Source of the DNA: Curvularia clavata
Taxonomy: Eukaryota
Direction: 5' to 3'
NCBI GenBank assembly: GCA_023920165.1
Contig: CP089277.1
Location: forward strand, 868,001-932,000
Length of the DNA stretch: 64,000 bases
The position numbers were made by a program, and so were the translations under genes. The notes below the pieces were generated by a model. It was not told the DNA's origin, did not search any database, and was given only the letters and a program-made list of their open reading frames with translations. Below, piece after piece: positions 34,072 to 48,064 of this stretch; within the stretch, counting starts at the first letter, position 1, and every line of letters begins with the position of its first letter.

Positions 34072-35785
34072 AAAAGGTCTCGTGAGAGAGTGTGATAGCA
34101 TGGGGAGAGGGCATGGGAGTAGTGGATCCGGTCTTGCCATTGCGTGAGTAGAGTGGAGGCGACATGTGGATGGCTGAGTTGTGTCTCACTGGGATACCAA
34201 TATTAGGTGGCAGCAGAAAGGATGACGAGGAACAGAGGCTTGGAGCCGACATGGCGACTTGTATTGGCCAAGAGGATGATCCAGTAGCACGACGGACGAC
34301 AGCAAAGACGGCACTAGTCGGTGGGCAAGGCCGCTTACGGCGCGGATCGTACCTGCCAATCGCTAAGAGTCAAGGGACTGGTGGCGGTCCGATACCGTCC
34401 GCGGGCACCTCAGCAGCATGGACCGGACCCCTAAGGCGAGGGTGTGGCCCACGATGCCGTCTGTCGCGGAGGGCTGTGGGTGGTGACGACAAGTGCAGGT
34501 GGTACCGGAAGCGTGTCAGTGGGACTTGGCCGCGAAGAATCAGGACGAGTGGTTTGCTTTTTTTCTTCCATATTTGTCGAGTCGGAATTTGATGGAATCA
34601 GATCAGCATTGCCTGGCCCCAGTTTTTGTGCATGGCATGGATTTCCGTTATTGGCTTCGAGTGCTAACGGACATAGCGGACGATTCAGAACAAATGGACA
34701 GGGATTGGGGGCAGACTGGCGACTCAGAGGGCAGGCTGTCAGTCGGGCGCTAAAGTATTCTGGCTGCCGGAGCGTGAGTGGCTGGTCGGCAAAAGCTAGT
34801 GCGGACAAGAGAAGCTCATGGGCGCGATTATCGCAGCTTTCCGAAAGCGTTTCAGCCGTCGACACTTTCTGTCTCTCCTTTATGCACAGGCGATGATTGA
34901 CGACAAGCCCCTGGGGCGTGGGAATCGCCACTGGCTCGCGTACCTGAGCAGCGCTGAATCAGTTTCCGATGTTTGGCGCCACGAGGGCACGGCAACGGCC
35001 AGGAAAGCTGGCGCGCCAGGCGGACGAGGCGGAGACGGAGGCGGAGACGCCAAAAAGGCGACGACAGATTAGCCGGAGACTTGGACACGAAGAGGAGGAG
35101 GATCCTGCGAGCCGGCGGCGGCGGCATCGCGACAGCATTTGGCCCTGGGCAGGGCAGGCAGGGCCGTCGACGTACAAGCATCCCACATCCATCGCAGGTG
35201 GCCGCATAACTCTGGCCCGCGCAGTGCCTAGGGGCGCATCCCCGATGAGGCGCTAAGCCCAACGTTGCAGCTCGTCGCTTGGCCGGCTGGCGGCCAGGAT
35301 CAGCGTGTCTGTGTGTCTGTGCCGGCAACCTTGGGCTCGAAACAAACAGGGCGCCCTCCCGCCAGCTGCGCTAGGCCGCGCCCGCATCGCACAGCCAGGG
35401 CCTGCTACCACCGTCCCCAGACTTAGACTCAAGTACGCGCTGCAGGCCCGTCGCGCCAGCCTTTCCCTGCAGTCTCTTGCCTTGCCTCGCCTTGCCGCGC
35501 CTGGTGGGTGTGCCTCTGTCGCTATTTGGCTCTTGTACCCAGCGCTTTTCACTGCCTTATCCCCGCCCTCCCCCAAGCTGCATTGCGTCGTTGCAAGTTT
35601 CGCCTCAGGAACCCCAATCTCATCTCATGCATACATGCATGTATGCCTGCCCTCGACCTTTCTGACCTCATCCGGAATACCATCTCGACCGTGTAGATGC
35701 ATATCTCCGTATAACTCCCTCGCCTGCCCCCCCGACAAGTACCCCCGTATCGCTTCCACTGCCTTTTACCGCTCCTCTCTCCGAC

Positions 35786-37572
35786 ATGAGCCAGCTGCAC
35801 ATGGATCACGAGCACCATCTCCACCAGGAGCCCTTTGAGGACCAACATGCTGCCTGGCGTCCAGACGCTGCATACAACACCCATCACCAATCCCCAGTTC
35901 AAGATTACAATGCCTTCTCCACCTACCCACCACTTCCCATGGAACCCCTCTATGCCACCGGAATGCATCCACCACCACAACACCAATCCCACCCAACCCC
36001 AAGGAACACGCACCCGCAACTCCAGCCGCTGATCATGCCCCAAATGCCACAATGGCCCAGCATGCTCACCAGCCAGTCGACATACCAAGCTCCCATCTTC
36101 CCCTCCGCCCCACCACCCATAACACCAGCATCAGCAACCCCAGTGTCTGCCACTTCAACCCAGTCCCGCACGTCATCCACACCTCGCAAGACTCTCACAG
36201 ACGCAGACCGCAGGCGTATGTGCCAGTACCATGAGGACAATCCCACTGTCAAGCAAACGGAAATTGGAGGTACGCCAACTTTGAGTCCAATCTCTTCTAT
36301 GCAAACATCACTGACGTTAATCCTAGCAATGTTTGGAGTGGAGCGAAGGTACCACTGCATACGCCTTCATGTATCTTGCCGTGCTGACAGCTGTGTAGTA
36401 CCGTTTCAAAAGTCCTGCGCCAAAAAGAAAAGTACCTTTACCAGGACGATGGCAGCCGGTCCCCTATCAAAAGATCAAAGGGCAAATTCCCAGACATTGA
36501 ACGCGCCCTCTCCAACTGGGCAAGAAACCACCAAAGGCAAGGGTTGCCGCTATCAGATGCCATCATCCGCGACAAGGCACGTTTCTTTGCCCAGACAGTC
36601 GGCAACTCGGACAGCCACCTCAAGGCCAACAGCACGAGCTGGCTGGAAAAGTTTAAGCAAAAGAACCACCTCATGGGTGCAAAATCAAGAAAAGGTTCCA
36701 TAGCAGAAGAGTCTGAGGGAACCTCGAATCCGCCCTCGAATGTGCATACGCCGGGCGCTATCTCGCCCACCTCACCAGGCGGAGGAGTATCGCCAGGCAC
36801 TGCAACTATGAAAGCTAAGAAGAGCGAAGAAAACCTCAAAACAGAAAGCCCAGATACGTTTGATTTCTCAGACCACCGCAGACCGTTTCATTCGCAGAGC
36901 AGCACTTCGTTGTCCAGTGTCTTCACCGACAATGCACCATCGACCTTTTCAGCTGGCCCTACCAGCCCTACATCGCTCTCTTCTCCCTTCTTCACACCAG
37001 ACTCAGCCTGTGGACCAAATCCGTTCATGGGCAACCGCCAGCCCGGCAACGGGCAGCCAGGGAGCAGCAACTTTCAACGACCACGAAGCCAGACCTTCCC
37101 GATGCTTGTGGGCGTGGAACAGTACATGTCACCTCCGGGTTCGTCAGATGCACTTACTCCAAAGTACGTGAGCAGCGGCAACCTCGACTCTCCTATGGCA
37201 GATATGCCTGGAAATCTACCCGCCATCGACGAATCCATGTCACTGTCACCAACACAAGTTCCCAACTCGATGCAGCCACCTCCCCTACCAAGTACCTCTG
37301 GCCAAACGGATGACAACTCTGCTCGTCCAGACCTTTCGCCCATGACACCGTCTCAGGAAGAAGCTGCGCGCGCGCTCGAGCTAGTCATGAGCTTCTTCCA
37401 GTCGCAGAATGCCGGTTTTGTAGTCGAGCCACAAGAGTATGTGACCATCGGCAAGCTGATGGAGAAGCTGCGAATCAAGCGTGGTTCCGAGAGCTTGTCC
37501 TCTGATATGCGACGGGTGTCAGAGTCCAACTTTGTCACCAGCAAGCTGGAGAGTGTCGATGCCATCCACTGA
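35786..37572 (+). CDS. CENP-B-type (pogo/Tc5-like) tandem HTH DNA-binding protein without DDE domain; exons 35786-36269, 36327-36348, 36399-37572
   Basis: RKTLTDADRRRMC..KQTEIG|AMFGVER|STVSKVL (first HTH) and GKFPDIERALSNW..PLSDAIIRDKARFFA..SWLEKFK (second HTH), then an S/P-rich tail. Confidence 0.85.
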
Positions 37573-40500: not shown

Positions 40501-43500
40501 TTGCTTTCTTATTTGTCGCAGTGTACCCTGTAGTCGGAACTTGTTTCAACGTCTAATTGGGTATGCGCTGCGAGCGTAGTAAAAAATAAAGAAAAATGTA
40601 TTAAACGTATGCTTGTTCGACTACTGTTACTCCGCGCGGCTGTACTTGCGCAGGAAAAGACAAGACGTTAAAAAGAAACGCCGAAAGCAGCTAACAGGCT
40701 TCCACAAGCCGACTTTCCGCCAACCTTGTCCTCGTTCGGCATCTCTCTCGGCATGGTATGCGGTCTTTCTTTTTCCCCTTGTTCCCCGGCGCAGCAGAGT
40801 GGGAGATGGCACATCGCATTTCTACTGTTCGTTTTCGTACTGGTGGAGTTTCTTTTTCGCATTTCCTAGTACTCGGCTTTCTGGGATGATTGGAACCCTT
40901 TGTGGTCTATACAAAACCGGTTACGGTACGGTCCGACGCCGGAAGCAGTAGGCACGACCATACCGTATGGGGGCGAGATCTTCATGTCGCCTAAATGGTA
41001 GATGTCTCTGAACTTGAACTATGAAGCAGTTAAATGCAAACCTATTGAAACCGTCTGACAAACCCAACTGGCTCTTTGTTACGACGGATAGGGTTTGACA
41101 CATGCGAAGGATACGTCATGCATTTAATTACCTGACATTGCGGTGCAACAGTGGCGGATACTCGTACGACATACCTGTCGCAACCAGTCCACCGATCACG
41201 GTTGGAACACGGGCGAGATGCGCATCGCCAATCTCCTTTTCCAAAAAAATCCGTAGCACGCATTTTTAAACTTTGTACTTTTTTTCCCTTATCGTATCAG
41301 GTGGAGATGACACATTTCCGTCCTTATGCGAAAGTCTCTAATGCGCAGCACTCGCTCGGACTATGTACAAGTTATGTTCTCGCGATATGCGTCCTAGACC
41401 ATACACCGCGATGATCGAGGAAGCGCCCCAAAAACGCCCTGAGTGCAAACTACAGTACACTATGATTTTGGCTTTGGCTTTGGGGAGGCACCAAAATGGA
41501 ACTTTGCGGGAAATGCTGCAGGAAAAGACGGAAGCGTTTCTCTTGGCTAACGTACTACGCTTCCTAAGCCTTGAGAAAAAGCCCATTGTCGTCATCTCGC
41601 TTCTTTCTCCACAGCTCCGTTGGTCTAGTTTGTTTTGTTGTTCGGAGGCGTATCTCCGCTTTACGCCAAAATAGCCAATGGGTTTCTTGCACAAAAGTAA
41701 AATGATACAAGAATGTCCGTTCCGATCTAGGCTCCCCCGCATTCAGTGGGGTCTAGATGGTCCGCGATGCGCAATGCACAATGCGCTGGCAGATCGGAAT
41801 AGGGACACAGATGGCAAAACCTCCCAATTGCCATGCTCTTTTTGGGTTGACTTTCTCATGTTGTGGTACCTGCGTGTGCTGGATACTCACGTGATCAACT
41901 TTCAATGCTGTGTAACGTCGCATGGGGATGAGGGGCTTGGGCAGAACCGGCTAACAATCAGGATTTCTGGGAGCAACAGGATCCAGGCCTATGGATTATC
42001 TTCTCGGATAATACACTGACCAGTAAGCGCATGTCACACGGACAAGTTTCTAGCCTTGCCCTTAGCTACGTACGGTAACATTCGTGTGGTTTTGGGTGTG
42101 CACTTAAAGCAGTGTCATGTGTCGCGGGAAAGCGACAGATCGGTAGCTGCAGAATTCACGGCAAAATATGACAGCTAGAAGGGCTGGAATCTTTGTATAG
42201 AATCTAGGGACTGCATAAGCAATATAGACTGTTGTTGCATGTGAAGAAAATAATTCTATCCTCTTGCCGGTTGCTGACGTCTACATTCTGTCTTACACTC
42301 CCTGTCAAACCTACTCTTCTGTTGCCCGGAATCCATCGCTCAGTTGTCAACCAAAGTATATTGCATGAACCGGTCCGGTAAGCGGAATCTACGGAGTATT
42401 CAACAGAGGCACGACTCGATATCATGCAGCAACGCACTTGGCGGTAAGGTTTTGCATTGACGAATGTGCGTCATGTGTACGTTGACTGCTGTCAAGACGC
42501 TGATTGCCATCATACGATTCTCTGTAAGCGACGATCTCATCCCTCGCTCTTCCAGCATCATACTTGGGTTGATAACAGAGGCGTGAGTTAAGACTAGCAA
42601 TACCGTGGCTGCTTGTTTCATCCGAATTGGCTGGCACGAGTTTGCCGTACGACGCACTATTGAAATATCATGCTCACCCCACGTAGGATAGCGACTCACC
42701 GATTCTGCACGGCCATGATTGCCCGCTACGGGTGATGTTTTGCATCGCCCGAGTCAACTTCCCCGCTCCCGTCCCAAAATGGGTTTGCAAGCTGTTTAAC
42801 CGTTGAAACACGGGTCGAGGTGGAAGCGTTGATGCCCATTTATGGCCCCTGATCACCAATCGGCTAGCGAGAGAGCATGGTAGATGCTGGAGTGTTCATT
42901 ACGCTAGGGTTGTGAGAAAGAAGGGTTGCTAACCCCCAAAGATCCCTGCCGCGAGCGCCACTCAGGGACAGGCGACGTTGCATCCTGCGATACCCTGAGT
43001 AGCGAGTGCTTCAGGATCATGGCTCTTTTCGTAGTGCGCATCGCGCGGCCTCCGAATGAATTACCGCAAAAGGATTCCTTGTCTGCCTCGAGAGTCTAGA
43101 GGATCGAGGTTTCAAGACCATCCCTGGGAAACGAGTCAGTCACAGCGGATATAGCCTCGGAGCAAAATTCTACGCACGCGCCCTCAACGCGCGCGTTATA
43201 CCATAGGGCCAGAAATGATGAAAGCGTCAGGATGCAGAAAAACTGCGCCGTAAGAGGCGGCAGCTCCGGGCATTGTGGTTCTTCGTCCAACTGGTGCCCA
43301 ACCGGATAGGGAATACTTTGAAACGGTTTCATCACACCATTAGGCTATTCGGGCATGAACTGTCAGGTACCGTGCGGTAATCCTGGTGAGAGCGATAAGT
43401 GATAGTCGAGTAATAAGGACTGTCAGTGCATGCGGGGTAGCCTTTGGAGAGACTGAAATTTACACAGCCCACTACAGAGTACATACTACGGCGTCGGGCA

Positions 43501-44581
43501 AAAACTAGTTGTAGCGGTTGCACGGTCGAAACTTGGTCTGAAGGTAGAGCTGTGTGTTTGAAGTTGAAACAGCTTGGGCTCGCTGGCAGTATTCGGGAAT
43601 AAACAAGTGGCGATATAGTAAACGTTCCGCGGCCAGCGATGGTTCACAGCTGCACCCCAAACCAAATTTGCTGGCATACACATGTTGTCTAGTGGGGCTT
43701 CAATGTAAGAAGTAGCGGGACCGGGACAAACTAATTTTGGCGCATGAAAATGTGTTGGAATTTCACAGGCTGCTCTGATTGAACTAGAAAACAGTCGATG
43801 TCATCTTTGCGTCGTTTGTCATCCAATATCAATGGCTGAGAGAGGGCTACCGGTTGTATGCGATTTGTCCCCGCACAGTCATCGAGCTGACACGGACCGT
43901 CGCGCTCCCCGAGCGGCTGAGAGACGGCTTGTTAAAGCGCTCTTCGTACACGTGCACTAGACTGGTTTTTCCCTGCTCCATGATGAGATATTTGCTAGCA
44001 TGAGCTCTGCACCAGGCGTAGTGGAGGGTTGGCTTGGGTCGAGGCTGGTTCGGGGGTAATGTATGTAGGGTAATACTGTGGGGTATCTCGTGGTACGGTT
44101 CTCGTAGAATCCCCTCGGCAATACCCCGAATAGTCAGGTGGTCGCTGCGGCATGCAGGCAGGCTGCAGTCTGAACGCCATGTGCCTCAACAATCCCTGCG
44201 AATGAATTTTTTAATTGGTCAAACCCCCTCTTTTACAAGAGCAGCGGTGTATGTATCTACTACAACTCGGTATGGGACGCGCGATGAGTTGGTAATACAT
44301 ACATGACTGTACATCATGTAGCTGCGCTCTGGTCGCTGTTGCCACTGCCATAGGGCAAACCCCTGCAGAGGAAGTATGCACACAACGAGGAACTTAAACC
44401 TGAATCCTGAGCCATCTGAACACGGTACAAGCAGTGACAAGTGCGCGACGGGCCGTGCCCAGCAGTTCGCCCACACTTAGCGGTGAGACTTCTTAAGCGC
44501 CAGCGAGGGTCGGGCCTTGCCAGCCAAAGGTGTGCGGTCCGCAACATCGATTGTCAGATTCCAAACAGTGCAGACGTCATC

Positions 44582-47308
44582 TCAGCTGATACGTTCCTCC
44601 AAAAGATCCTTCACGCTTTGTTCCCCCAACTCCGGGAAGAGACGCAGAACAATCAATTCCACAATCTGGAAGATCAGATGCTTGTTGAGGTACGTGTCAT
44701 CGAGACAGCCTAGAACCTCTTCGACCTGTTGAATCTGGGCTTCGCGATCGTCGCTCGCGAAGAAGGTTGCGGCTATCTTAGCTGGGACTAGGTTGAGGAG
44801 CGTGGCGGCACAACAGTGCTTGATGCTCTCGATCTCTTCGTCAGTTGGGACTTGACGTGGGGGCCCAAGCGCGTTATTGGGAAAAAGTGTTGCACGGAGA
44901 GTGCGAAGCGCCACTGGGAGGAAAGCGGGGTTCAGAATCCTGGTGTGTATAGTGCGGGAGAGAAATCTGCAGATGCTCATGGTTAGTGTCTGAATTATGA
45001 TGTTGACAGATGAAGCCCATTGGTGCGAAACAGAGCAAATGCGCGTGTAGTGTCCTCGACAGCTAGGCCAGTCTGCGGGACAGTCAATTGGTGGTTGAAC
45101 ATGACGGAGACGGCAGTGCATGGGGCTAATCGGTCGGACGAGGTGGAGAAGGATATTGATGTGGTCCACAAAGTGAGGCGTATGCCCATGTCAAGCGAGA
45201 TTGACTGGTCGTACCAGAGCGCAACTGAAAGACTTCGCAGCCAGCCCAAACCATAACCAAAAGTCCGGGTCATTCGTCATTCGTCGATTGTTTCAACAAG
45301 GGCGCACCGGGCGAGTGAAGCGTATGCTTGCTAGGATGGCTACTCCGGCAAGATGACAGCAGCAGTGTTGCAGGTCGCTAAGGCGTAAAGAACGAAAAAC
45401 GAGGCGATGTCAGCTGGTGGCATGGTCGGAATCTTGGGCTAATGCTGTAACCCAGGCGCAGTTCGGCCAGTCTTGGGATGAAAGATCGGTGAGACGGCTC
45501 AGGGTATGCCGACCCTGTGTAGGCTCCCCAGCACGCCCTGTACGCCGACGGAAAGCTGTGCTGCAGAATTGTCTCGGCCCAACTGTAAGCATCGTGCATT
45601 CCATGGTGGTGTTTGGCAAGACTGTGTCCAAAACGTGTCGACTTGCCGCCCGGAACGGGTGCTGAGGCTTGCATGAGTCGATGCGCCACGGCAGGGATAA
45701 TCCAGTGTGTGAGCCTGCGGGCCGTCGCATTCGCTGAAGCGAAGTCAAGTGACTGAAATCGTATGCGAAGCCATCTCACCCTGTCTCGCACGGACCAGTG
45801 ACGCCCCGACGACTGGCCAACCACGGCATCAACATCAAGAAGAGGAGATTGTCGCCACTCACCTGTCCAATACACCGTCCGTCTCACCCACCCTGCCTGG
45901 ACCGACCAAGGCTCCACGATGGAGCATTGAGGTGAAACCTGATAGCCAAGGCATGCGGACATCTAACTCAACAACCTGTGCTGCACAGCTCCACAAAGCC
46001 ATACTCACTACGGGCCGTTTGCCTCCCAACGGGCGCTTTGAGGTCATAGTCTTGGTTTGCGGCATTTGCAATTGGTCAGAAACTTGACCCGATGACTGCT
46101 CGCTTGTGACATATCTTGACGGCAGAGAAGATGATGTCGCCAGACACAAAATCGCCGCGCGCGCCGCAGTAAACGCCAAAAACGCATATTGGATGACGGC
46201 CCAAAAGAGCCCAGTCGTGGATACTAGCAGCTGCCGAGGGTGCTGCTGCTCAGCATCTAGTCGCTCACTCGCCCTGGCTTCCGTCCCCTGCTGTGGTAAA
46301 AGGCCGTAGCGTTCCAGCCGGTTCAGCGATTGCTCTCCGTTAGGACCTTCTGATTCGAGACCAGTCTCTTTCGCATCATCGGTTTGCAATACTTCGGCGA
46401 TTCTTGTAATACCCTCCCATAGCACCCACCCCTCACACGCTTTCCCGCTGATCCCGTTTCCGAGAATCATCTCTGCAAAGATCTCAGCCACCAGTGCCCG
46501 AAGGCAACCATTCTTTAGATCCTCAGTTGGTAGCAGCAGAGCCAATACCCCGTGAACAAGCAGTTGACGCCACGCGGACTCGCTTTCCCGTTGTTCGAGA
46601 ACTGAAGCCGGGATGATATCGGTTGGGACAGGAGAAAGTGCAGGGTGTGGGTGGAGCGTATGGTAAATCGTACGGGGGTCTGATGTTAGTGAATTGCATG
46701 AGGTGGCTTGACGCTTCGCTATGCGAAAAGCTGGCCATAGAGCATTAGACACACTCAATGCAATAACCCAGGGATCGGAACCACCTACAGCTTAGATGGG
46801 ACTGGAGTATTTCAGGGATCTCGTCTAGTAACAACGATTCCAAATCAACTTTTCTTAAGCGCTGCTCAAGACCCCTGGTGCAATGAGCAATAATTTGAAT
46901 CACCTCGTTGACAAACACTTGGTTCGGAGTGATCTTTGAGTACCACGTCTGTACAAATTCTTTGATGATCACAGAAATGATGCCATAAAGCTGGAGGTCG
47001 ATCGCATTTGAGCTTGTCAAAGGTGGTAGTACGTCTTCAATAGGCCGTGGTGTGCTGCGTCCTTTCTCGCCGTTCCCAAGTAGTACGTTGTGGGAGCACA
47101 GGGTGCGTCGAATAAAAGCCGCAGTTGCTTTGTCCGAGGTAGTATCTGTTTGAAACTTCTGAGAGTCGACTAGTCGAGTTGGACTCGTAGCACGAGCATG
47201 ATTCGGCAGTTTGCCGCCTGCATTCCCTGGAGTAGATGGCATTGGGGCTTGAAGGGCTGGCGGCTGCGAAAGGGGGATATCAAAATCCCGGTTCATGCTT
47301 TCTGACAT
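44582..47308 (-). CDS. PXA-domain protein; exons 47308-46789, 46730-45863, 44966-44582 (second intron 896 nt)
   Basis: LPPLTSSNAIDLQLY..IIKEFVQTWYSKIT..SLLLDEIP (PXA), YHTLHPHPALSP, LLLPTEDLKN and C-terminal LNKHLIFQIVELIVLRLFPEL. GTGAGT donor at 45862 and CTAAC..CAG acceptor at 44967 keep the frame (DR|FLSR). Confidence 0.85.
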
Positions 47309-47534: not shown

Positions 47535-48064
47535 ATGGCGACCCTAAGCCCTGAAGGTGCGTGATCGAACACGGTTCTTTGGATTTATGCTCACGTATCT
47601 GGAAGCGGCGATAATCGAGGTTGAGGCCCAACTCAAAGACATTGTTCAGAACCTTTACAACCTTATTGTGCAAGGATATGATCATCATGGCAACACTACG
47701 CAAGAGGCTATGAAACGTGAGATGTATGTCTAAATCGCTTGTTCGTAGTTCAACGTATCCCTGACGAGTGTACAGTCAATCGCTGGTTCAAAATCTAGTG
47801 AAACTGTCGAGAACCGCACCTTCCGTGCAAATCGACATACCACCTGAAGTCATGTCCTATGTCGAGAATTCCAGGAATCCTGATATTTTCACTCGCGAGT
47901 TTGTGGAGACTGTTCAGCGAATGAACCAGATGCTGAACGGCCGTATCGATGCATATCGCATGCTACAGGAGCAACTGGCATGGCAAGTCTCCAATGCTAT
48001 TCCGGAGCTCAAAGAAGACGTTATCTCTGTAGTGGAATCTACGGGGGGAAAAGTACCAGTATAA
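47535..48064 (+). CDS. MED10: Mediator subunit Med10/Nut2 (3 exons)
   Basis: QLKDIVQNLYNL..IPPEVMSYVENSRNPDIFTREFVE signature; divergent from the PXA gene across about 226 bp. Confidence 0.9.

Follow-up and report, generated by a model that had tools for sequence, protein, structure and literature searches.

A conserved sequence block without a conserved fold in the long terminal intron of a fungal PXA-domain gene

Introduction

What kind of constraint acts on an intron of 896 nucleotides (nt) in a filamentous ascomycete, a group in which introns are typically short? The intron discussed here is the terminal one of a gene that encodes a PXA-domain protein on the minus strand, at ~47.3 to 44.58 kb of the window; by window we mean the whole analysed stretch of 64,000 nt from Curvularia clavata (contig CP089277.1, positions 868,001 to 932,000). 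A sequence-only reading of this DNA had marked 45420..45862, within the intron, as a structured RNA with two long-range helices, and had proposed an unclassified intronic regulatory or hosted RNA. The question is whether a fold or the letters themselves are conserved, and what the conserved part could do. We find that the region is marked by the primary-sequence conservation of ~200 nt together with the position and length of the intron, and not by the helices. This block is a conserved intronic non-coding element of a broad known class, and it fails the defining tests of the nearest known kinds. We know of no earlier description of this intron, and a literature search returned neither a description of the intron or the block nor an ancient intronic DNA element of filamentous fungi.

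Results

Gene model and splicing of the long intron

All coordinates are window positions, and all features of the gene lie on the minus strand. The PXA domain (Pfam PF02194) is split over two exons, with expect values (E) of 9e-26 and 4.8e-21. The second of these matches lies in exon 2 (45863..46730), which holds the second half of the domain and a linker as judged from the orthologue alignment. The top named relatives of exon 2 are Bipolaris proteins with 86% identity, followed by those of other Pleosporales. The host of the flagged span is a PXA-domain gene of a Pleosporaceae fungus. Its orthologues (~590 residues) run continuously from ...GVLDR into FLS(H/R)TIHTRILN..., the point at which the window has 896 nt. 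The long terminal intron (44967..45862) is in phase 2 and reads GTGAGT...CTAAC...CAG. Its branch-point consensus CTAAC (44982..44986) lies 15 nt before the AG of the 3' splice site and is kept in relatives as GCTAAC or GCTGAC. The last exon (44582..44966; 127 codons and the stop codon) encodes a conserved C-terminal region without Pfam match. Intron 1 (46731-46788) measures 58 nt, so that the gene model of the sequence-only reading and its contrast between the 896-nt intron and the other introns are correct.

The joining of the last exon to the upstream exon can be seen in a relative. A transcript-like contig from an Alternaria relative (L026) is 98.7% identical to the genomic contig L001, which is itself Alternaria-like (99% to a named Alternaria alternata protein). 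L026 is without exactly positions 7445-8436 of L001 (~995 nt), and its joint of GGACAG to GTTCCTC is that of the spliced orthologous intron. Three further cDNA-like contigs (L004, L005 and L015) are contiguous across the junction. The long intron is genuine; its splicing is seen directly in the relative, and in C. clavata the evidence for it is indirect.

Two side observations concern the same junction. The Pyrenophora teres gene model P0003 has a shortened N-terminus and ~85 extra residues exactly between GVLDR and FLS (alignment columns 473-557), which look like a translated piece of the orthologous long intron that the gene caller took in. In run X12, one contig of low likeness matches 45853-45905 and 45705-45767 and skips 85 nt at a joint 45767>45853; a diverged orthologue with another spacer length, in which the end of the exon and the core described below are retained, would account for it.

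Age and distribution of the intron

Metagenome contigs were scanned with an alignment of 28 orthologues, which gave 74 loci; many are near-duplicates, and 32 distinct intron 5' parts remain, the window included. The orthologous introns are not short. In 41 of the 42 loci with both sides of the junction, an intron of 913-1461 nt is found at the same codon and in the same phase, the sole short one being that of L033 with 49 nt. The long introns of relatives start with GTAAGT or GTGAGT, and with GTAGGT in L059. The named proteins that they resemble place the loci in two main groups. One comprises Pleosporales of several families, with likeness to Alternaria, Pyrenophora, Parastagonospora, Paraphoma, Lentithecium and Pleomassaria; the other is large and closest to proteins of Lecanoromycetes (Stereocaulon, Letrouitia, Sticta, Schaereria). 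As judged from these comparisons, the long intron is ancient and has been kept at one codon in distant fungi.

A block of ~200 nt is conserved above the flanking exons

The Pleosporales-wide block of conserved non-coding sequence (45625..45830) starts ~35 nt after the 5' splice site. In blastn comparisons, intron positions 67-238 (45796..45625) are 90.7% identical to L001 and L002, 87% to L007, L012 and L013, and 77-85% to L006, L010, L016-19 and L023. Over 15 relatives the block shows 71-91% identity versus 64-82% for flanking exon pieces, and the 90.7% to L001 stands against ~80% in the exons. In Pleosporales the block reaches 81-91%, versus 67-82% in the exon pieces of the relatives just named. 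Both flanking exon pieces are exceeded in 12 of these 15 relatives, four of the 12 being without a figure for exon 3, and the block ties or loses in L006, L024 and L031. An nhmmer profile of the block finds every Pleosporales-like locus once and in gene-sense orientation only (E 1e-32 to 1e-56). In the window it gives a single match at 45824..45629 (E 5e-54), with no second copy in the 64 kb. The block has the properties of a conserved non-coding element: it is syntenic, it is conserved above neighbouring coding sequence and it extends across distant taxa.

The deepest conservation is found in a core of 24 nt, CGCATACGATTTCAGTCACTTGAC, at 45744..45767, with the pattern YGCAT-N5-12-R-D-TCA-NN-TGAY. 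Among 55 loci that offer at least 120 nt of intron, 48 have this core as CGCAU-N(8-10)-RTCA-NN-TGAC, 67-98 nt after the junction, and the contigs closest to Lecanoromycetes are included. The similarity that blastn detects between the two classes amounts to ~35 nt only, at the core. Read by eye, several pieces nevertheless recur in both groups in the same order, namely GTRAGT-YRCGAY, a pyrimidine tract, GTTGG, CGG-N-CCG, CCCGTT and CACGTT. The pyrimidine-rich tract is TCTCCTCTTCTTG in the window (45836..45848), just 3' of the 5' splice site, and recurs in relatives as TCTCTTTCTTC, GTCTCTTCTGC and similar strings (alignments read by eye, no statistics). Likewise by eye, conservation begins at the 5' splice site itself, and the spacing from it is kept across the classes. 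The Pleosporales introns also keep, farther downstream, CAGCTGAC, TCCCGCGGA and GCRCCAAT-like blocks.

The block is neither coding, nor a repeat, nor a known RNA

A protein-coding exon or nested gene is rejected, as tblastx matches occur in all six frames, the indels are not multiples of three and include single-base ones, and invariant runs of 12-44 nt are without third-position variation. The overlapping open reading frame (ORF) of 194 amino acids at 45381-45962 has no Pfam match. A transposon remnant or introner-like element is rejected as well, given the single copy in the 64-kb window and the same position and similar size in 41 of 42 loci; other copies of the intron in the window were not found beyond chance. 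Introner-like elements of Dothideomycetes have reportedly been described by van der Burgt and colleagues in 2012. The intron studied here resembles them in being unusually long in a Dothideomycete. Those elements are multi-copy and recent insertions, whereas this intron occupies the same orthologous codon in distant lineages and is present only once in the window.

The sequence-only reading had found no likeness to the thiamine pyrophosphate (TPP) riboswitch, the signal recognition particle RNA, RNase P/MRP or small nucleolar RNAs (snoRNAs), and the search of Rfam 15, whose families include the TPP riboswitch (RF00059) and U3, agrees with this. Over window positions 44500-46300 at E <=10 no family was found in the intron, and the sole match, SNORD53 with 15.9 bits at 44521-44588, lies outside it. 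In five related loci no family was found within the introns at E <=5.

A conserved fold could not be detected on either strand. The consensus that RNAalifold finds for 17 distinct sequences from Pleosporales has -6.0 kcal in sense and -13.9 kcal in antisense orientation, with two compensated pairs each, and a scan of all column pairs for covarying helices gave none that is convincing. For 20 orthologous elements the minimum free energy (MFE) has a mean z-score of +0.01 (sense) and -0.35 (antisense). Three local helices in the core, CGCAU/AUGCG, GUC/GAC and the UCGC/GCGA hairpin of the sequence-only reading, show no two-sided change in any of their 12 pairs; their variable columns break the pair (in 4, 3 and 6 sequences), and 418 of 500 shuffles reach their covariation score. 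Pairing of the pyrimidine tract with the purine-rich stretch before the core has a median P of 0.31 over 20 loci and reaches significance in just three Alternaria-like loci, which are closely related. Neither strand gave a sign of a conserved or unusually stable fold, and the term structured RNA is not supported. With no signal of coding, repeat, known family or fold, the constraint on the block is therefore on the letters themselves.

A number of single motifs were also considered and rejected by eye. UUUCAG as a 3' splice site within the core does not persist, and neither Nab3/Nrd1-type sites, GCAU clusters (Whi3-type), an AGNN tetraloop nor a likeness to U2, U3 or U6 is conserved across the groups. 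The GATA site in CCCGTTATCG is absent in Pleosporales.

The two long-range helices are fortuitous

The helices of the sequence-only reading do exist. Recomputed from the sequence, helix 1 pairs 45811..45820 with 45463..45472 (UUGGCCAGUC/GACUGGCCGA, 10 base pairs (bp), one G-U), and helix 2 pairs 45768..45780 with 45488..45500 (GGUGAGAUGGCUU/GAGCCGUCUCACC, 13 bp, two G-U). They are properly nested, and their wobble pairs are strand-specific, each G-U of the minus strand corresponding to an A-C mismatch on the plus strand. Three local hairpins are present as well, namely cagggt/accctg, ggcaag/cttgcc and ttcgc/gcgaa. The 5' arm of helix 1 overlaps the conserved TGGTTGGCC block, and its 3' arm (GACTGGCCGA) is a block conserved in the four closest relatives; the 3' arms of both helices lie outside the widely conserved block.

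Comparison with shuffled sequences places these helices at the level of chance. The 443-nt span has 2 stems of at least 10 bp, and its 200 dinucleotide shuffles have 3.76 on average. A stem of at least 13 bp occurs in 17.5% of the shuffles, and a nested pair of at least 13 bp and at least 10 bp in 11%. On the minus strand the span has an MFE of -156.1 versus -158.6 +/- 6.4 for shuffles (z +0.40; 66 of 100 shuffles fold as well). The z-score of the plus strand is +0.19 and that of the whole intron +0.83, so that excess stability is absent on both strands. As a caution, nested helices of 10-13 bp with strand-specific wobbles in a GC-rich span of 450 nt are what chance gives.

Pairs were counted in relatives on a MAFFT alignment of five Pleosporaceae introns; another alignment misplaced the GACTGGCCG block of the window. 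In each of the four relatives 8 of the 10 pairs of helix 1 remain, 7 of them contiguous, and all changes are one-sided: the 3' arm is invariant, C>U and A>G changes in the 5' arm give G-U, and one U>C change breaks a pair. Helix 2 keeps 8, 8, 10 and 10 of its 13 pairs (3-5 positions broken), and only 2-4 of 6 pairs are left in the hairpins cagggt/accctg and ggcaag/cttgcc. A two-sided pair change was not found in any of these helices or hairpins among the four closest relatives. Beyond Pleosporaceae, where the 5' arm of helix 1 could be located in 17 of 21 introns, it has no consistent or covarying partner; its best partners reach 9-12 of 12 pairs at scattered places, which we judged to be chance level without a shuffle control. 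Two single-nucleotide polymorphisms (SNPs), each seen in four of four runs, fall into the helices. The one at 45463 (T>C on the plus strand) turns U-A into U-G in helix 1, and the one at 45768 (A>G on the plus strand) turns U-G into C-G in helix 2. Both hit terminal pairs and keep the pairing on the minus strand, which is uninformative for two transitions.

Despite the strand-specific wobbles, the G-U-preserving changes in helix 1 and the two pairable SNPs, a selected minus-strand fold built on these two helices can hardly be upheld: the helices are at chance level and erode in the relatives without compensation. The two long-range helices are fortuitous. What stands of the sequence-only reading is an unclassified intronic non-coding element, carried by primary-sequence conservation and by the position and length of the intron; its structured RNA is not supported, and the helices cited for it are at chance level.

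A further complementarity was noticed in the intron. On the minus strand the intron has two copies of GACTGGCC, and the complement GGCCAGTC is found a single time, towards the 5' end (sites 45459-45473, 45060-45074 and 45805-45818), and the 5' copy of GGCCAGTC can pair with either downstream copy of GACTGGCC. The copy of GACTGGCC near the 3' end of the intron sits in the conserved CCCGCGGACT block of the relatives.

Discussion

A proposed pre-mRNA element that is read as sequence

The explanation that we favour, tentatively and at somewhat less than even confidence, is that the block is a sequence-read and protein-bound element of the precursor messenger RNA (pre-mRNA) that controls the removal of the long intron. 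The block would be read as sequence and not as fold, and would serve as a landing platform for sequence-specific RNA-binding or splicing factors. Factors bound there could set whether and how fast the exceptionally long intron is removed. A transcript left unspliced would yield a product without the conserved C-terminal 127 residues, or would be degraded. The intron is in phase 2 and starts with GTRAGT, and an unspliced PXA transcript therefore stops right after ...GVLDR.

An RNA element tied to the use of the 5' splice site is favoured over a free DNA site because conservation starts at the splice site and the distance is kept across classes. Two further points speak for the RNA level. The orientation is always gene-sense, with one copy per locus, and the message has a long non-coding tail that is conserved block-wise, the mRNA-like contigs of relatives reaching 0.5-1.3 kb past the stop codon. 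Long tails of this kind are as expected of a message under heavy post-transcriptional control.

Several observations weigh against this explanation. Action at the RNA level and control of splicing or retention are inferred. The element is not indispensable to the gene, as 7 of the 55 loci are without the core. Four of these (L039, L041, L045 and L059) lack it despite a long intron or at least 219 nt of it; they are distant relatives with 38-47% identity. The others are L014, whose contig ends at 121 nt of intron, L033 with its 49-nt intron, and L048, in which one tblastn match reads past the junction to about residue 485. By eye, the palindromes GTCA-NN-TGAC and CGG-N-CCG, whose spacers are too short to form the loop of an RNA hairpin, look like dimeric DNA-binding sites.

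The transcripts of the same species also count on this side. Contigs from two runs that we guess to be RNA (X4 and X6) run unbroken from 44400 to 46405 over the whole intron and extend on to ~42685. Joints of exon 2 to the last exon were not found among the contigs of these two runs, from which we do not conclude an absence of splicing, as contigs drop rare variants. The 58-nt intron 1 is likewise unspliced in them. Spliced joints are nevertheless present in X4 and X6, at 47552>47602 and 46405>46465, both with GT..AG on the plus strand. The sole joint within the PXA gene is thus an intron of the opposite strand inside exon 2. It comprises 46406-46464 (59 nt, GTAATA...GCTGAT...GAG on the plus strand) and is skipped by one contig and kept by another in both X4 and X6. 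This indicates that a spliced natural antisense transcript crosses the PXA coding region, and in these two runs the antisense transcript probably dominates the assembled RNA at the locus. Much of the RNA over the locus may be antisense, and the element could then serve that transcript or its promoter. The RNA-guessed contigs themselves show neither transcription starts nor strand.

A possible DNA-level module

The foremost rival, which we consider unlikely but to be reckoned with, places the action on the DNA: the intron would hold a cluster of transcription-factor sites, an enhancer or a promoter. One candidate target is the plus-strand transcript that runs across exon 2 with its intron at 46406-46464, the antisense joint of X4 and X6 lying ~600 nt from the block. 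Short invariant blocks with variable spacers, without fold and without covariation, are in line with such a module. So is the sole universally kept motif, GTCA-NN-TGAC, a palindrome that contains CANNTG with a free central dinucleotide; CGG-N-CCG recurs too (by eye), and the downstream CAGCTGAC, TCCCGCGGA and GCRCCAAT-like blocks of Pleosporales introns can be counted here as well. Palindromes are, however, not enriched overall. With arms of 4+4 and a gap of 0-2, 75 were observed versus 59.5 expected in 20 orthologues, most of which are individually non-significant, and a control region has 42 versus 56.7 expected. Furthermore, the block abuts the 5' splice site with its orientation and distance kept across classes, which a DNA site need not do. 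The neighbouring Med10 gene, a possible target, is missing next to the PXA gene in those Lecanoromycetes-like loci where the core is kept.

Conserved non-coding elements that act as intronic enhancers or promoters are well known in animals and plants, while no such ancient intronic DNA element is known to have been established for filamentous fungi. The block is like them in its invariant pieces of 6-20 bases, flexible spacers, absence of a fold and palindromic core. Unlike for enhancers, its position is fixed beside the 5' splice site, which is not expected of them.

A possible new family of intron-resident RNA

A bolder reading, speculative and on balance improbable, sees the block as a member of a new and ancient family of fungal RNA that resides in introns, either a switch that senses a protein or small molecule by tertiary contacts or a stable hosted RNA. 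If this were true, such an RNA would be the reason why a ~1-kb intron stayed at one codon of a lipid-contact-site (PXA) gene, and the retention of the intron would predate the divergence of Dothideomycetes and Lecanoromycetes. The tertiary contacts of such a switch cannot be revealed by covariation on ~30 sequences.

The nearest known kinds are conserved intronic motifs of fungal pre-mRNAs, namely introns with TPP riboswitches and the ribosomal-protein and other motifs of Li and Breaker 2017 (PMC5640933), followed by intronic snoRNAs. The block is like the intronic motifs in being non-coding and placed in the intron of one orthologous gene near a splice site; many fungi keep the element, and a tie to splicing control is plausible. 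Those motifs are defined by covarying stems; none were found here, and there is no Rfam match. In the text of Li and Breaker 2017 the terms PXA, phox and sorting nexin have zero occurrences.

Possible pairing of the intron ends

It is also conceivable, with a probability that we put low, that two conserved stretches, one close to the 5' splice site and one close to the branch point, are complementary, pair over ~750 nt and thereby shorten the effective distance. Such end-bridging would be a contributing part of the splicing of a long intron and not the whole meaning of the block. The candidate 5' half, GUGCGA (45786..45791), lies ~70 nt after the 5' splice site and forms the base of a 17-bp stem that includes G-U; its candidate partner UCGCAC (45023..45028) lies ~60 nt before the 3' splice site. 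The four close relatives all retain this 6-bp pairing, with one two-sided change (G-C to A-U in L007) and a G-U in L013. In 11 Pleosporales loci read by eye, the varying pair is G-C in four, A-U in five, G-U in two and A-C in none. The best duplex of the 5' region with the 3' region beats shuffles with P 0.005-0.12 in five Pleosporaceae and 0.0 in L006.

The pairing comprises only 6 bp in related loci, however, and the one-sided Fisher value of ~0.045 is not corrected for phylogeny. Outside these 6 bp the 17-bp stem decays, with 11-15 of 17 pairs kept in relatives. In eight other loci the duplex test, on mononucleotide shuffles, is non-significant (P 0.105-0.835). Among the Lecanoromycetes-like introns there is no homologous 3' block, and the whole intron, with its z-score given above, is not unusually stable. 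GUGCGA/UCGCAC is a weak lead for end-bridging of the long intron and leaves the block unexplained.

Some long yeast introns are said to have helices that bridge the 5' splice site and the branch point, reportedly described by Goguel and Rosbash in 1993, Libri and colleagues in 1995 and Rogic and colleagues in 2008; the work of Rosbash and colleagues on RP51B/RPS17B is said to concern such bridging helices in long introns. The PXA intron is like these in its length, which is much above the genome norm, and in a short pair of ends with one compensated change. Unlike in the yeast introns, support covers 6 bp in Pleosporales only, and the bulk of the block is not explained by pairing.

A possible hosted non-coding RNA

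More doubtful still is a stable RNA of an undescribed family that is processed from the excised intron and would be the reason why the long intron survives. The nucleotide conservation of the block above the host exons is in favour of it, as is the single-copy, sense-oriented position in an intron that is demonstrably spliced in a relative; many fungal snoRNAs are intronic (PMC3596301). The Rfam searches described above speak against it, and so does the absence of a stable or covarying fold that could protect the ends. Only ~35 nt are common to the two classes, and the block starts right at the splice site and is not embedded with flanks.

Both snoRNA classes were considered in particular. A C/D-box snoRNA is rejected by eye, without a formal snoRNA finder, in the absence of a conserved set of C (RUGAUGA) and D (CUGA) boxes joined by a terminal stem within ~70-120 nt. 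Strings like UGAUG that occur close to the 5' splice site of the window intron are not conserved in relatives, and the AGAUGA of some Lecanoromycetes-like cores is CACUUGA or CAUAUGA elsewhere. An H/ACA snoRNA is likewise rejected: no conserved double hairpin and, by eye, no conserved ANANNA...ACA box set was found, and the candidate ACA in CGACACGTTT is AUA, AGG or ACG in relatives. The block is thus similar to the intronic C/D and H/ACA snoRNAs of filamentous fungi in being single-copy, in sense orientation, within an intron and conserved above the host exons. Unlike them, it has no box motifs (by eye), no terminal stem, no hairpin-hinge-hairpin fold and no Rfam snoRNA match.

Meaning of the block

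An intron of ~1 kb that Pleosporales and lichen-forming fungi share at one codon, with a block conserved above the exons, is a case of deep non-coding constraint that is rare in fungi. The 24-nt core and the 200-nt block offer a small target for how fungi splice and regulate exceptional introns. They raise the question of full versus C-terminally truncated PXA protein, and the wider one of ancient fungal non-coding elements outside the known RNA families.

Neighbourhood of the gene

Past the stop codon of the PXA gene, ~42620-44581 on the minus strand is an ORF-poor stretch of ~1.9 kb with several blocks conserved in Pleosporales: 44325-44075 (72-77%), 43915-43847 (80-83%) and 43207-43166 (90%). 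Its extent matches that of the RNA contig ending near 42685, and it is probably a long conserved 3' untranslated region. A small conserved ORF in this stretch was considered and rejected, since tblastx matches occur in all frames, which marks the stretch as non-coding.

On the other side, the gene for the Mediator subunit Med10 (Pfam PF09748) lies on the plus strand at 47552-47602 and 47765-48064, divergent from the PXA gene, and contigs confirm its 49-nt intron (joint 47552>47602). The head-to-head pairing of Med10 and PXA gene is kept in Pleosporales-like loci and in L033, L039, L041 and L047. Service of the block to the divergent Med10 gene is weakened because Med10 was not seen beside the gene in Lecanoromycetes-like loci.

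Farther along the window, a stretch of ~7 kb without long ORFs (38-44.5 kb) lies downstream of a plus-strand gene at 35666-37572 that encodes a helix-turn-helix DNA-binding domain of the Tc5-transposase type (PF03221, E 9.6e-17).

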